Positions 2,797-59,102 of a stretch of 64,000 nucleotides of DNA are shown one piece after another. The position numbers and the translations under genes were made by a program. Source of the DNA: Actinomycetota bacterium (GTDB lineage: Bacteria > Actinomycetota > Thermoleophilia > Gaiellales > F1-60-MAGs149); NCBI GenBank assembly GCA_016870485.1, contig VGBM01000008.1, positions 23,999 through 87,998 of the forward strand, given 5' to 3'. Below the pieces are notes generated by a model. That model was not told the DNA's origin, did not search any database, and saw nothing but the letters and a program-made list of their open reading frames with translations. Within the stretch, counting starts at the first letter, position 1. Each line of letters begins with the position of its first letter.

Positions 2797-4710
2797 GTGA
2801 AGGTCCACCTCCCCGACGGCACCGAGCTCGAGCTCCCCGACGGCGCGACCGGACTCGACTGCGCGCGCGCGATCGGCGAGCGCCTCGCGAAGGCCACGGC
2901 TGCGGTCGAGGTCGACGGCGAGCTGCGCGACCTGCGCCTGCCCCTGCCCGACGGCGCGCACGTGCGCATCATCCGCGTCGGCGACCCCGAGGCCCTCGCC
3001 GTGCTGCGCCACTCGACGGCGCACGTCCTCGCTGAGGCCGCCCGCCACGTCTTCCCCGGCGTGAGGATCTCGATCGGTCCGGCGATCGACAACGGCTTCT
3101 ACTACGACTTCGACTTCCCCGAGCCGATCGGCGAGGCGGACCTGCAGCGGCTCGAGGACGAGATGCGCCGGATCCTCAAGACGCGCCACGCCTTCGAGCG
3201 CGGCACGGTGGAGCGCGACGCGATCCGCCAGCGCTTCGTCGACGAGGACGAGGCGTACAAGGTCGAGCTGATCGACGACCTGCCCGTCGACGAGCCCCTG
3301 ACGGTCTACACGCAGGACGACTTCACCGACCTCTGCCGCGGCCCGCACCTGCAGGACACGGGCCCGATCAAGGCCTTCACCCTGACGCACCTCGCGGGCG
3401 CCTACTGGCGCGGCGACGCGACGCGGCCGATGCTGACGCGGGTCTACGGCACCGCCTTCTTCACGCAGGAGGACCTCGACCAGCACCTGCGCAACATCGA
3501 GGAGGCGCTCAAGCGCGACCACCGCCGGCTCGGGCGCGAGCTGGACCTCTTCTCCTTCAACGACGCCTCGCCGGGCGCGCCCTTCTGGCACCCGAAGGGC
3601 ATGGTCGTCTGGAACACCCTCGTCGACATGTGGCGCGAGGAGAACGGGGCGCGCGGCTACCAGGAGGTGAAGACGCCGATCCTCTACGCGTCCGACCTCT
3701 GGAAGACCTCCGGCCACTGGGACAAGTTCCGGGACAACATGTACCTGCTCGAGATCGAGGAGCGCGCCTTCGGCATGAAGCCGATGAACTGCCCGGCGCA
3801 CTGCCTGATCTTCGGCAGCGAGCGCCGCTCCTACCGCGAGCTGCCGCTGCGCATGAACGAGGTCGGCCTCGTGCACCGCCACGAGCCCTCCGGCACGCTG
3901 CACGGGCTGATGCGGGTGCGCCACATCACGCAGGACGACGCGCACCTCTTCATCACGGTCGACCAGATCGAGGAGGAGGTGCAGGGGGTGCTCCGCTTCG
4001 CGCTCGACCTCTACGAGCTGTTCGCGATGGACTACCGGATCGAGCTCTCCACACGGCCCGCGGTGCGGGTCGGGGACGACGCGATCTGGGACAAGGCCGA
4101 GGAGGCCCTGCACCGCGTCCTGCAGGCCCGCGGGATCGAGTACCGGGTCAATGAGGGCGACGGCGCCTTCTACGGCCCGAAGATCGACCTGCACCTGACG
4201 GACTCGCTCGGCCGCTCCTGGCAGTGCGGCACGGTCCAGCTCGACTTCAACCTGCCGGAGCGCTTCGAGCTCGCCTACACGGGCGCGGACGACCGCGACC
4301 ACCGACCCGTGATGATCCACCGCGCGCTGCTCGGCAGCTTCGAGCGCTTCATCGGCATCCTGATCGAGCACTACGGCGGGGCGTTCCCGCTCTGGCTTGC
4401 GCCGGTGCAGGCCGTGATCCTGCCGATCTCGGACCGCCACCACGAGGCCGCTGAGCTCGCCTGCGCGACGCTGAAGGCGGCCGGGCTGCGCGCCCAGGTC
4501 GACGCCCGCGGCGAGTCGATCGGCAAGCGCATCGCGGAGGCCGAGACGCAGAAGGTTCCGGCGATGCTCGTGATCGGCGACCGCGAGGCGGAGGCGGGGG
4601 CGGCGGCGGTGCGCCGCCACGGCGGCCACGACCTCGGCACGCAGCCGCTCGCCCGCGTCGTGGAGGAGCTCGCGCAGGAGCGCGACGCCCGCGTCGTCCA
4701 CGGCGCGTAG
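2797..4710 (+). CDS. thrS: Threonine--tRNA ligase
   Basis: 637 aa with TGS domain, second additional domain (RHSTAHVLAEA), class II core (FGMKPMNCPAHCLIF, HRHEPSGTLHGLMRVR) and anticodon-binding domain. Confidence 0.97.
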   Translation: MKVHLPDGTELELPDGATGLDCARAIGERLAKATAAVEVDGELRDLRLPLPDGAHVRIIRVGDPEALAVLRHSTAHVLAEAARHVFPGVRISIGPAIDNGFYYDFDFPEPIGEADLQRLEDEMRRILKTRHAFERGTVERDAIRQRFVDEDEAYKVELIDDLPVDEPLTVYTQDDFTDLCRGPHLQDTGPIKAFTLTHLAGAYWRGDATRPMLTRVYGTAFFTQEDLDQHLRNIEEALKRDHRRLGRELDLFSFNDASPGAPFWHPKGMVVWNTLVDMWREENGARGYQEVKTPILYASDLWKTSGHWDKFRDNMYLLEIEERAFGMKPMNCPAHCLIFGSERRSYRELPLRMNEVGLVHRHEPSGTLHGLMRVRHITQDDAHLFITVDQIEEEVQGVLRFALDLYELFAMDYRIELSTRPAVRVGDDAIWDKAEEALHRVLQARGIEYRVNEGDGAFYGPKIDLHLTDSLGRSWQCGTVQLDFNLPERFELAYTGADDRDHRPVMIHRALLGSFERFIGILIEHYGGAFPLWLAPVQAVILPISDRHHEAAELACATLKAAGLRAQVDARGESIGKRIAEAETQKVPAMLVIGDREAEAGAAAVRRHGGHDLGTQPLARVVEELAQERDARVVHGA

Positions 4711-4882
4711 GCCGTCGCAGATGGTGCGAGACGCGGTGGAAACCGCGTACTGATGCGGGTGGAGCGCACGGGCGGGGCGTCCGTACCGTGCTACGATCGC
4801 CCGCGTCGGTCGGCCCCGGGCCTGCCGTCACCCACCCGATCAACGAACGGAGACCACCACCCTTGCGCACGGAGCACCAGCC

Positions 4883-5983
4883 TTGAGGCCACGCGGCGGA
4901 TTCGACCGCCCGCCGGACGAACCGCGCGTCCGCATCAACGAGGCCATTCGGGTACCGCAGGTGCGCCTGATCGGCGCAGACGGTGAGCAGATCGGGGTCA
5001 AGGACCGGGACGAGGCGCTGGAGTACGCCTGGAACCTGAACCTGGACCTCGTCGAGGTGGCCGCCGACGCTCGCCCGCCCGTCTGCCGGGTGATGGACTA
5101 CTCGAAGTACAAGTACGAGCAGGAGCAGAAGGCCAAGCTCGCCCGCAAGCACCAGAACGTCATCGTCATCAAGGAGATCAAGCTGCGCCCGAAGGTCGGC
5201 CAGCACGACTACGAGACGAAGCGCGGGCACGTGATCCGGTTCCTCAAGAAGCGCGACAAGGTCAAGGTCACGATCATGTTCCGCGGCCGCGAGATGACGC
5301 ACCCCGAGCGCGGCCGCGACCTCCTGCTGCGCCTCGCCGAGGACCTCAAGGAGCTCGCGGTCATCGAGTCGGAGCCGCTGCAGGACGGCCGCAACATGGT
5401 GATGATGTTGGCCCCCTCCAAGCAGCTGATGAAGGAGGACGGCAAGGCTGAGAGCGGAGAGGACGAGGATCGCCCCGTCAAGCCCGCGCCCACCGTCAAG
5501 CCCACCCCGACGCCCGTCGCCACGGAGACCCAGGCGCCCGAGCCCGCCGTGGTGGGGGTCGCCGAGGTCGTCGCCGAGGTTGAGGAGGCCGCACCGGCGG
5601 CCGCGGAGGCCGAGCCCGTGGAGGCGGTCGCCGAGATCGTGGTGGCGGAGACCGCTGCCCCGGTTGCGGACCCGAAGCCGGAGCCCGCCACGGCCCCGGC
5701 CGCCGCCAAGCCGGTGGCGAAGCCGAAGGCCACGGCGAAGCCGAAGGCGCCCGCCAAGCAGAAGGCCGCTGCGGCGGAGAAGCCCGCGGCGAAGGCCCCG
5801 GCCAAGCCGAAGGCGCCCGCCAGGCCCAAGGCGGCCGCGGCGGAGAAGCCCGCCGCGAAGGCCCCGGCCAAGCCCAAGCCGGCGGCCGCCGCGAAGGCGC
5901 CCGCCAAGCCGAAGACGACCACCACCCGCAAGACGACCACCGCCAGGAAGCCTGCTGCCGCGCCCGACGCCGACAACGGGTAG
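4883..5983 (+). CDS. infC: Translation initiation factor IF-3 with a long C-terminal low-complexity extension
   Basis: Residues ~17-180 are canonical IF3 (RINEAIRVPQVRLIGADGEQIGV...IKEIKLRPKVGQHDYETKRGHVIRFLKKRDKVKVTIMFRGRE). Residues 181-366 are an acidic then Lys/Ala/Pro-rich tail. The TTG start at 4883 is uncertain, because IF3 genes often use atypical start codons. Confidence 0.93.
   Translation: MRPRGGFDRPPDEPRVRINEAIRVPQVRLIGADGEQIGVKDRDEALEYAWNLNLDLVEVAADARPPVCRVMDYSKYKYEQEQKAKLARKHQNVIVIKEIKLRPKVGQHDYETKRGHVIRFLKKRDKVKVTIMFRGREMTHPERGRDLLLRLAEDLKELAVIESEPLQDGRNMVMMLAPSKQLMKEDGKAESGEDEDRPVKPAPTVKPTPTPVATETQAPEPAVVGVAEVVAEVEEAAPAAAEAEPVEAVAEIVVAETAAPVADPKPEPATAPAAAKPVAKPKATAKPKAPAKQKAAAAEKPAAKAPAKPKAPARPKAAAAEKPAAKAPAKPKPAAAAKAPAKPKTTTTRKTTTARKPAAAPDADNG
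5762..5880 (+). repeat. In-frame 66-nt tandem duplication inside the infC tail (KAAAAEKPAAKAPAKPK unit)
   Basis: aaggccgctgcggcggagaagcccgcggcgaaggccccggccaagcc at 5762 recurs nearly identically at 5828 (aaggcggccgcggcggagaagcccgccgcgaaggccccggccaagcc). The period is 66 nt. Confidence 0.85.
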
Positions 5984-6009
5984 TCTGCCGCGCAGCTCGA
6001 GGACGCACG

Positions 6010-6207
6010 ATGCCGAAGGTCAAGACCAACTCCAGCGCCAAGAAGCGCATGAAGGTGTCCGGCAAGGGCAAGATCGCCCGTCGCCAGGCCATGGAGTCGC
6101 ACCTGCGCGGCAAGATGACGGCCAAGCGCCGCCGCAAACTGAGCCAGGATCAGCCGATGGCGAAGGCCGACTACAAGGAGGCCCTGCGCCTCCTCGGGAA
6201 GCGGTAG
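6010..6207 (+). CDS. rpmI: 50S ribosomal protein L35
   Basis: MPKVKTNSSAKKRMKVSGKGKIARRQAMESHL... Position between infC and rplT. Confidence 0.97.
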   Translation: MPKVKTNSSAKKRMKVSGKGKIARRQAMESHLRGKMTAKRRRKLSQDQPMAKADYKEALRLLGKR

Positions 6208-6216
6208 GGACGCCCG

Positions 6217-6579
6217 ATGGCCCGCGTCAAGCGCTCCGTCAGCGCCAAGAAGAAGCGCCGCAAGGTCCTCGAGGAGGCCTCCGGGTACTGGGGCCTCAAG
6301 TCGAAGCTGTACCGCCAGGCGAAGATGCAGGTCGCCCGCTCGGGCAACTACGCCTACCGCGACCGCCGCGTCCGCAAGCGCGACTTCCGCTCGCTCTGGA
6401 TCGTCCGCATCAACGCGGGCGCCCGCCAGCACGACCTCTCGTACTCGCAGTTCATGCACGGCCTCAAGGTGGCCGGCGTGACCGCGGACCGCAAGGTCCT
6501 CGCGGACCTCGCGCTGAACGAGCCCGCGGCCTTCGGCGCCCTCGCCGAGAAGGCCAAGGCCGCGCTGGCCGCCGCGTAG
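6217..6579 (+). CDS. rplT: 50S ribosomal protein L20
   Basis: [26 protein letters not shown]...[24 protein letters not shown]. Confidence 0.97.
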
Positions 6580-6590
6580 GCGGCGCCCGC

Positions 6591-7337
6591 GTGGAGCCGA
6601 TCCGCAGCCTGCGGAACCCGGCGCTGCAGCGCGTGCGCGCGCTCCGGCGCACCTCCGAGCGCCGCGCGCAGGGCCGGTTCGCCGTCGAGGGCGAGGACCA
6701 GGTCCTGGCGGCGATCCGCGCCGGTGCCGTGCTCGAGGACCTGCTCGTCCGGGAAGGCGCTTCCGCGCCCGCGGGGGCGGGGGTCGAGCCCCTCGTCGTG
6801 GCGGCGGAGGCGATGGACCGCATCTCGGCGGTCGCCTCGGGCAGCCGCGTGATCGCCGTCGTGCGCGCCGACTCGATGCCGCAGCCGCCCGCCGGGCTCT
6901 CGGGCGTGGGCCTCGTCCTCTGCGGCGTCTCCGACCCGGGCAACGTCGGCACGCTCCTGCGCACCGCTGCCGCCTTCGCCGCCGAGGTCGTGGTGCTGGG
7001 GGCGCCGAGCGCCGACCCGACGGCCCCGAAGGCGGTGCGGGCCGCGACCGGGGCGACGTTCGCCGTGCCCACTCTCGCCGTGGACGACCCCGCGCTGGCC
7101 TACCCGGAGGCGCGCCTCGTGGCCCTCGACGCCAAGGGGGACCGCGACCTCGCCGGCTGCGACCTGACGGGCCCCGTCCTGATCGCACTCGGCGCCGAGC
7201 GCGAGGGTCTGCCCGCGTCGGTGCGCGACCGCGCCGACGTCGTCTGCCGCATCCCGCAGTCGGACCGCGCCGAGTCGCTCAACGTCGCGGCGGCCGGCGC
7301 GATCGCGCTGTCGATGGCGTACCGGCTCAGCACCTGA
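6591..7337 (+). CDS. TrmH/SpoU family RNA 2'-O-methyltransferase
   Basis: GTG at 6591 in ORF 5580..7337. RSLRNPALQRVRALRRTSERRAQGRFAVEGEDQV (substrate-binding N domain), then the SPOUT motifs GVSDPGNVGTLLRTAAAF, LGAEREGL and IPQSDRAESLNVAAAGAIAL. The position after rplT is typical. Confidence 0.88.
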   Translation: MEPIRSLRNPALQRVRALRRTSERRAQGRFAVEGEDQVLAAIRAGAVLEDLLVREGASAPAGAGVEPLVVAAEAMDRISAVASGSRVIAVVRADSMPQPPAGLSGVGLVLCGVSDPGNVGTLLRTAAAFAAEVVVLGAPSADPTAPKAVRAATGATFAVPTLAVDDPALAYPEARLVALDAKGDRDLAGCDLTGPVLIALGAEREGLPASVRDRADVVCRIPQSDRAESLNVAAAGAIALSMAYRLST

Positions 7338-59027: not shown

Positions 59028-59029
59028 GG

Positions 59030-59102
59030 CGCCCCCGAGACGATTTGAACGTCTGACCCCAGCCTTCGGAGGGCTGTGCTCTATCCCCTGAGCTACGGGG
59101 GC
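59030..59102 (-). tRNA. tRNA-Arg (anticodon CCG)
   Basis: Reverse complement GCCCCCGTAGCTCAGGGGATAGAGCACAGCCCTCCGAAGGCTGGGGTCAGACGTTCAAATCGTCTCGGGGGCG. The cloverleaf has anticodon loop CUCCGAA. Confidence 0.93.

Follow-up and report, generated by a model that had tools for sequence, protein, structure and literature searches.

In a Thermoleophilia genome, the gene infC for translation initiation factor 3 (IF3) encodes a canonical core followed by a 186-residue C-terminal tail, the extreme of a class-wide, highly variable and usually acid-only IF3 tail. The gene lies at 4883..5983 on the + strand of the window analysed here (64,000 nt of contig VGBM01000008.1, positions 23,999 to 87,998) and comprises 366 codons plus a TAG stop, as assigned from the list of open reading frames (ORFs) and from Pfam and NCBIfam profile matches. 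Its product is identical to MBM3680944.1 (P0124), and the nearest relatives of the organism are Gaiellales-like, from freshwater metagenomes. We interpret the tail as a genuine disordered extension that has been grown and shrunk by in-frame tandem duplication and that would act, by analogy with other charged tails, as an accessory electrostatic module, an interpretation to which we give about an even chance of being correct. An initial annotation of the same DNA had described a 186-residue tail, acidic at first and then rich in Lys, Ala and Pro; composition counts agree with that description (net −14, then net +20), and the observation is solid, and broader than that annotation supposed.

By its domains, its equivalog score and its operon, the core belongs fully to the IF3 family. 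The N-terminal domain (residues 18-85; 4934..5137, +) matches PF05198 with E = 1.5e-29 and the C-terminal domain (residues 94-178; 5162..5416, +) matches PF00707 with E = 1.3e-34. An AlphaFold2 (AF2) model of the core shows two alpha/beta domains with a linker helix at residues 75-90, at a predicted local distance difference test score (pLDDT) of 70-93 overall, 70-85 in the N-terminal and 78-93 in the C-terminal domain. The infC equivalog profile TIGR00168 aligns to residues 14-180 with 210 bits against a cutoff of 60, and it stops where the canonical end of the protein had been placed, at ...NMVMMLAPSK (residue 180). This core has a net charge of +8; a second, tail-less IF3 is absent from the window, and the canonical core looks single-copy.

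Beyond residue 180, the reading frame continues for 186 codons (5423-5980) to the TAG at 5981-5983, and the parts of the tail follow one another as a short helix, an acidic block, Lys/Ala/Pro repeats, a Lys/Arg-Thr motif and an acidic tip. The proximal segment SKQLMKEDGKAES (residues 179-191; 5417..5455, +) is predicted to form the short helix (AF2 helix 180-192, block pLDDT 64), and this SKQLLKED... segment is the sole part of the tail whose sequence is conserved among close relatives. The acidic Ala/Glu/Pro/Val block (residues 181-270; 5423..5692, +) has 20 Asp and Glu against 6 Lys and Arg, for a net charge of −14, and the basic Lys/Ala/Pro(/Thr) block occupies residues 271-356 (5693..5950, +); AF2 predicts both to be disordered. 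Taken to the C-terminus, residues 271-366 (96 residues) include 38 Ala, 21 Lys and 18 Pro and carry a net charge of +20. Within this region, a sequence read places the Lys/Arg plus Thr-run motif KPKTTTTRKTTTARK, which has similar counterparts in basic-tailed relatives, at 5906..5950 (+) near the C-terminus, and the short acidic tip PAAAPDADNG with the TAG stop at 5951..5983 (+). The initial annotation had the protein ending in KTTTTRKTTTARK, which is indeed encoded at 5906-5950 but is followed by the acidic tip.

From residue 193 on, AF2 assigns no secondary structure, with pLDDT 39-48 (32-sequence alignment), and on the strength of this model intrinsic disorder is the best reading of the tail. 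Its charges are segregated: positive charges lie on average 52 residues distal to negative ones (label permutation p = 0.0003). Profile searches of the tail against Pfam and NCBIfam, including Hc1, HC2 and linker histone, returned no match at E ≤ 1, with the lone weak exception of a far sub-threshold valS model over residues 139-332 (16 bits against a cutoff of 1783). When the basic block alone (96 residues) was searched against an index of 5.8 billion proteins, none of 8000 word candidates reached E ≤ 0.001, a null result that is expected given composition correction, and the best match of the tail to PDB sequences, eL18 at E = 0.29, is not meaningful. The basic block is the sole Lys/Ala/Pro-rich stretch within the window.

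Because the genome is 74% GC, open frames alone are weak evidence of coding. Judged from several further features of the DNA, however, the tail appears to be genuine translated coding sequence. Across the three codon positions of the tail, GC is 0.75, 0.61 and 0.95, and GC content at third codon positions (GC3) is 0.946 in the tail against 0.956 in the core. Independent assemblies in NCBI, JGI and Logan contain at least eight variants of the 366-residue protein. The 1101-nt infC ORF recurs, without indel or stop and with 2-3 substitutions only, in four contigs (L081-L084) that were assembled independently from different samples and are 99.8-99.9% identical over 3.6-7.1 kb. These observations uphold the earlier claim, made from high GC3 throughout, that the tail is translated, and the stop near 5425 that would betray a false read-through is present in none of the four contigs. 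A sequencing or assembly error that removed such a stop or scrambled the repeat, leaving a true protein of ~180 residues, might be invoked because repeats are difficult to assemble and because three relatives (P0010, P0121, P0123) end at contig ends within the tail. Faced with an identical ORF length in four independent contigs, eight full-length variants from three sources, GC3 of 0.95 throughout and tails in the same frame in dozens of related species, this explanation is exceedingly improbable, and we consider it effectively excluded.

The possibility that the region encodes a gene in a different frame or on the opposite strand was also considered and rejected: ORFs at 5580..7337 (+) and 5209..7188 (−) span known genes, codon-position GC marks the infC frame, and these long ORFs are by-products of the 74% GC content. 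The two spurious ORFs, Arg/Pro-rich and 585 (+) and 659 (−) residues long, overlap infC, rpmI, rplT and the gene after them, and could lead gene callers astray. Read-through into a former infC-rpmI spacer was likewise rejected, as the gap is short (median 16 nt) at any tail length and is no smaller with longer tails (Spearman +0.31, p = 0.10, 30 loci); the tail is therefore inserted coding sequence and not former spacer. The window tail contains 32 prolines and no Pro-Pro pair, where 5.4 pairs would be expected and only 0.08% of shuffles have none; in the tails of 31 species together the pairs number 30 against an expectation of 45. Such scarcity is in keeping with the avoidance of motifs that stall ribosomes, but the statistic is inflated by internal repeats.

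The basic part of the tail is built from tandem repeats, with periods of 12, 18 and 66 nt. Tandem Repeats Finder reports a 66-nt (22-residue) unit in 2.3 copies with 89% matches at 5724..5878 (+). In the best codon-register pair, 5744-5809 encodes KAPAKQKAAAAEKPAAKAPAKP and 5810-5875 encodes KAPARPKAAAAEKPAAKAPAKP, identical at 60 of 66 nucleotides and 20 of 22 residues; three of the six nucleotide differences are synonymous, and the other three cause K-to-R and Q-to-P changes. The initial annotation had placed this repeat at 5762 and 5828 and called it recent. The repeat is real, but in that register only 54 of 66 positions agree, and with copies 9% diverged against under 0.2% between strains, "recent" is an overstatement: the duplication predates the diversity seen in this population. 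The related suggestion that repeat number varies between strains fails within this population, where all full-length proteins have 366 residues, and holds in a sister lineage, whose cluster members measure 310, 312, 320, 328, 336, 342, 344, 368 and 375 residues and use a different, 8-residue unit. Proteins of the sister lineage keep the same C-terminal end, and much of their length variation comes in 8-residue steps. Repeats in these genes are in-frame, each with a period divisible by three: 66 nt in the window gene, 24 nt × 8.8 in the sister-lineage locus L001 and 42 nt × 5.6 in L058.

To place the window tail in its class, we surveyed 79 Thermoleophilia species, each a GTDB species representative with a complete gene, and defined a basic window as a net charge of +5 or more in 25 residues. 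Tail length spans 0 to 188 residues and shifts between close relatives; it is at least 20 residues in 59 species, at least 50 in 29 and at least 100 in 9, and falls under 20 in the other 20, with the ORF ending at the aligned core in six loci. Since 64 of the 79 tails are net negative and just 6 of 79 contain a basic window, the ancestral, class-typical feature is an acidic Ala/Glu/Pro/Asp tail, to which the Lys-rich block, from its distribution, appears to be an add-on in some lineages. Its carriers are the window lineage, the sister lineage (P0002-P0009, L001), which is built from KAKAAPAA units, the P0069/P0086/P0088 group and the P0090-P0102 group, and forms of 218-253 residues with ~90% identical cores have the acidic tail alone, without the basic block. 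Basic-tailed and acid-only lineages are interleaved on a low-resolution neighbour-joining tree of the core, implying either repeated gain or repeated loss of the block.

Alignment of infC across relatives, the check proposed with the initial annotation, thus finds tails to be common, but tail sequence is barely alignable. Even where cores are 81-94% identical, tails barely beat composition-preserving shuffles (z = 1-5) while keeping the same block order; the first ~25 tail residues score z = 5.6-6.3 above shuffles against P0002 and P0011. Of the 23 tails of at least 50 residues that contain a basic window, 22 have it distal to their most acidic window; these lineages are not independent. In several basic-tailed lineages a short acidic tip comes after a shared Lys/Arg plus Thr-run motif (KPKTTTTRKTTTARK, KKTPTTRARK, KSTTTKKTTKKTT, RRKAPTTTSTTTE); the tails of acid-only relatives terminate in EEPATTS or EEPTTTS. 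Compared with relatives, the last 40 residues score only modestly above shuffles (z = 1.2-2.9). In two metagenome-assembled genomes of uncultured Actinomycetes (L005, L009), the distal basic patch is Arg/Gly-rich (RRGGRRGGGPRRRRQRPRR; RRGGRRGRHRR) and not Lys/Ala/Pro-rich, an RGG-like variant of the acidic-then-basic layout.

If the tail does act as an accessory electrostatic module, comparison with better-known proteins suggests how it might work. The IF3 C-domain would sit on the 30S platform at the subunit interface, and a chain leaving its C-terminus would point into the intersubunit space, as in human mitochondrial IF3 (IF3mt). The acidic block, repelled by rRNA, may serve as a flexible spacer and as a damper of IF3-30S affinity, as proposed by comparison with the chloroplast IF3 of Euglena (IF3chl), and might also compete intramolecularly for the basic surfaces of IF3. 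The Lys-rich block, at ~+20, could then provide a second, salt-sensitive and sequence-independent hold on a polyanion, as the tails of Hlp/HupB, Ku and TopA do on DNA; the likeliest such polyanion would be rRNA or mRNA at or close to the 30S subunit, and on these analogies the tail might plausibly tether IF3 to rRNA, mRNA or the nucleoid. The net effect would be a tuned residence and local concentration of IF3 with no new catalytic role, exerted by a module that is accessory and easily gained or lost.

There is evidence for selection on tail composition, in the Lys enrichment, the charge segregation, the distal position of the basic part, the absence of Pro-Pro pairs and the preserved block order. 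Residues 271-366 are 22% Lys, with K/(K+R) at 0.88; the corresponding values for 34 other high-GC3 ORFs in the window are 1.9% and 0.17. This ~11-fold enrichment in Lys runs counter to the GC bias of the genome, and all 21 Lys codons are AAG. Near-neutral growth, in which Ala/Pro/Glu/Lys codon repeats lengthen by replication slippage at the tolerant end of a GC-rich gene into a tail that is translated, harmless and without a specific task, is a possible but rather unlikely explanation. It readily accommodates a range of 0-188 residues among species that changes between close relatives, tails barely alignable at 81-94% core identity and repeat families that differ by lineage, and it is also favoured by the population differences in infC. 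Those differences number 2-3 among L081-L084 and are wholly nonsynonymous and wholly in the tail, in the acidic block (S191G, E242D, K265T), with zero changes in the core and zero synonymous changes, a total too few for dN/dS. What such growth explains poorly is a Lys-rich composition that opposes genome bias, the recurrence of the acidic-then-basic order, the missing Pro-Pro pairs and the renewed origin of Lys/Ala/Pro IF3 tails in Micrococcales; that 59 of 79 species have a tail of at least 20 residues and 64 of 79 a net-negative one implies that at least the sign of the charge is maintained. Several points nonetheless weigh against the electrostatic module as we interpret it. Internal repeats and shared ancestry inflate the statistics on Pro-Pro pairs and charge order, and infC polymorphisms that are tail amino-acid changes only are in keeping with weak constraint. 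Absence of the basic block at ~90% identical cores and tails under 20 residues in 20 of 79 species indicate that the tail is not needed for core IF3 function, and the six loci whose ORF ends at the core likewise make it dispensable for that function. Removal of the PAKKA tail from Mycobacterium smegmatis Ku raises its affinity for DNA (PMC3553676), so PAKKA tails are not simple affinity boosters, and each functional step proposed above rests on analogy.

Other functional readings assign the tail a different role. The diblock layout of −14 and +20 beside a core of net +8 would suit an autoinhibitory or switchable tail, in which the acidic block folds back on the basic RNA-binding surfaces of IF3 or on the basic block and putative Thr phosphorylation in KPKTTTTRKTTTARK toggles the charge, as in histone H1 tails. 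Extensions of Euglena IF3chl lower 30S binding ~100-fold (PMC2241858), and several lineages have K/R plus Thr-run motifs close to the C-terminus; yet the similarity of these motifs is just z = 1.2-2.9 above shuffles, and net tail charge ranges from −10 to +13 among basic-tailed relatives, which shows that exact neutralisation is not conserved, and we judge such a switch unlikely. Of slightly lower probability still is a regulated RNA tether, in which the Lys block would capture mRNA or rRNA near the 30S platform and the acidic block together with Thr-cluster phosphorylation would switch capture; such a tether could recruit weakly Shine-Dalgarno-dependent or leaderless mRNAs or hold IF3 on nucleoid-proximal ribosomes. 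We find it quite improbable that the H1-like block works largely independently of the ribosome, binding nucleoid DNA or polyphosphate and so placing IF3 at the nucleoid or at granules, or driving RNA-protein condensates. The carrier is a ribosome-binding factor for which rRNA is the nearest and most abundant polyanion, the tail has no Pfam match to the Hc1, HC2 or linker-histone families at E ≤ 1, and the window has no second Lys/Ala/Pro-rich stretch; these observations stand against a composition like that of the DNA-binding tails of Hlp, Ku and TopA (PMC3553676, PMC7398561), the organisation of polyphosphate granules by the histone H1-like AlgP (PMC9239181), the expectation that segregated charge blocks favour coacervation and the proposal that disordered IF2 extensions promote phase separation (bioRxiv 10.64898/2026.02.08.704698).

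The genetic setting of infC is conventional. The operon has the standard order thrS-infC-rpmI-rplT, with thrS at 2797-4710, rpmI (L35) at 6010-6207 and rplT (L20) at 6217-6579 (together 6010..6579, +; from ORFs, with Pfam labels from the identical locus L081), and the rpmI start lies 26 nt past the infC stop. A sequence read of 4871..4885 (+) gives a Shine-Dalgarno GGAG at 4871-4874, an 8-nt spacer and a TTG start at 4883-4885; at the aligned position, 29 related Thermoleophilia loci (from L001-L080) start with TTG and 5 with GTG. Rare infC starts that serve IF3 autoregulation, AUU in E. coli and AUC in Streptomyces (PMC5472188), are typical of the family without defining it, and the TTG of the window gene, like the GTG of some relatives, is unlike them, so IF3 autoregulation may differ or be absent in these Thermoleophilia. 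Several Actinomycetes IF3 entries, P0327 (Micrococcus sp. KRD153, WP_206495949.1), P0236 and P0334, have 50-120 extra N-terminal residues before ...ISDPRINERIR; these are probably over-extended calls from a non-canonical infC start, and the annotated lengths of these entries consequently overstate the protein.

Downstream, a gene for a SpoU/TrmH-family RNA methyltransferase (6591-7337, +; PF00588 plus an MRM3-like substrate-binding domain) follows rplT after an 11-nt gap and may be co-transcribed with the infC operon. The rplT-methyltransferase arrangement is identical in the same-population contigs L081-L083, and L084 is cut off within the methyltransferase gene. An Rfam scan of 4400-6700 for a hidden RNA element, with an L20/L35 operator considered, gave no match near the gathering score, and an RNA element in the tail-coding region or the infC leader was rejected on folding z-scores of +0.62 (5880-6030) and −0.65 (4711-4900). 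No promoter-like or terminator-like sites were found around the infC leader and the tail-coding region. Elsewhere in the window, ARAGORN identified a tRNA-Arg(CCG) at 59028-59102 (−) that the whole-window Rfam scan did not pick up at the gathering threshold; a scan of that region by itself gives it 63 bits, indicating a speed-filter miss and a real tRNA.

IF3 is among the most conserved and best-studied translation factors and is usually seen as a fixed protein of ~180 residues. In a whole actinobacterial class, comprising abundant soil and freshwater bacteria, it bears a fast-evolving tail, predicted to be disordered, that is able to double its size. If the tail alters the 30S residence of IF3 or its contact with mRNA, the kinetics and fidelity of initiation would be tuned by a repeat-based "charge dial"; if it is neutral, it shows how much low-complexity load an essential factor tolerates. 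In either case, cores that are ~90% identical offer a natural series of no tail, an acidic tail only and an acidic plus basic tail, which serves the study of charge-patterned disorder. Should the tail prove to be a regulated RNA tether, bacteria would have in translation initiation a counterpart of the charge-regulated H1 tails, one that recurs in Actinomycetota (Thermoleophilia, Micrococcales, possibly mycobacteria).

C-terminal extensions of IF3 are already known, and low-complexity tails on conserved factors are not surprising in themselves. Full-text paper searches found no study of a Lys/Ala/Pro or acidic-basic IF3 tail, and public records label MBM3680944.1 and its tailed relatives only as translation initiation factor IF-3. 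The closest bacterial precedent, named as an extended IF3 in the initial annotation in agreement with what is reported, is Dsg of Myxococcus, whose C-terminal extension of more than 60 residues is described in PMC2241858 (citing Cheng et al. 1994 and Kalman et al. 1994) as mattering for vegetative as well as developmental functions and not for viability. As in that account of Dsg, the window protein is a bacterial IF3 with a long C-terminal extension past the IF3_C domain, here of 186 residues; it differs in belonging to another phylum and in a tail about three times longer, the two tails being compared by description only.

Organellar IF3 proteins likewise have extensions appended to the IF3 homology core. 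In human IF3mt, the C-terminal extension enters the intersubunit space, controls tRNA binding and can block initiator tRNA and IF2, and the same source mentions in passing that mycobacterial IF3 also has such an extension (PMC6352543); in IF3chl of Euglena gracilis, the extensions account for the ~100-fold cut in 30S binding (PMC2241858). These tails are ~30-60 residues long and are accompanied by N-terminal extensions, and that of IF3mt is a single helix. The window protein departs from this pattern, with ~13 residues before the TIGR00168 match, ~170 predicted-disordered residues after the helix at 180-192, and a 186-residue tail that is repeat-built and charge-blocked.

In composition, the nearest counterparts are the H1-like tails of DNA-binding proteins, and the likeness to HupB/H1-type tails noted at the outset agrees with the Lys/Ala/Pro content of Hlp/HupB, Ku and TopA (PMC3553676, PMC7398561). 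PAKKA repeats of Hlp and Ku modulate DNA binding (PMC3553676), the lysine repeats of TopA confer processivity (PMC7398561), and AlgP of Pseudomonas organises polyphosphate granules (PMC9239181). With all of these the window tail shares composition, short tandem units, fast evolution and patchy presence in related species. It is a low-complexity Lys/Ala/Pro tandem region like theirs, without a sequence-family match, and in contrast to Hlp/HupB, Ku and TopA its carrier is the ribosome- and RNA-binding IF3 and not a DNA-binding domain, and a 90-residue acidic block precedes the basic one.

Among IF3 proteins themselves, Lys/Ala/Pro(/Thr) tails occur in Micrococcales, as in Micrococcus sp. KRD153 (WP_206495949.1) and Cellulosimicrobium marinum (WP_229244743.1); of the 112 scorable representatives of 50%-identity clusters near the query, four are such cases. 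Like the window IF3, these proteins continue past the core, for 150-190 residues, in ATAKP/AAKP-type repeats, and are annotated just as IF-3; unlike it, the proximal part of their tails is basic (KKKADAKSEQRKR...). Their cores are 55-59% identical and their repeat units are different, so the Micrococcales tails probably represent an independent origin of Lys/Ala/Pro-tailed IF3.

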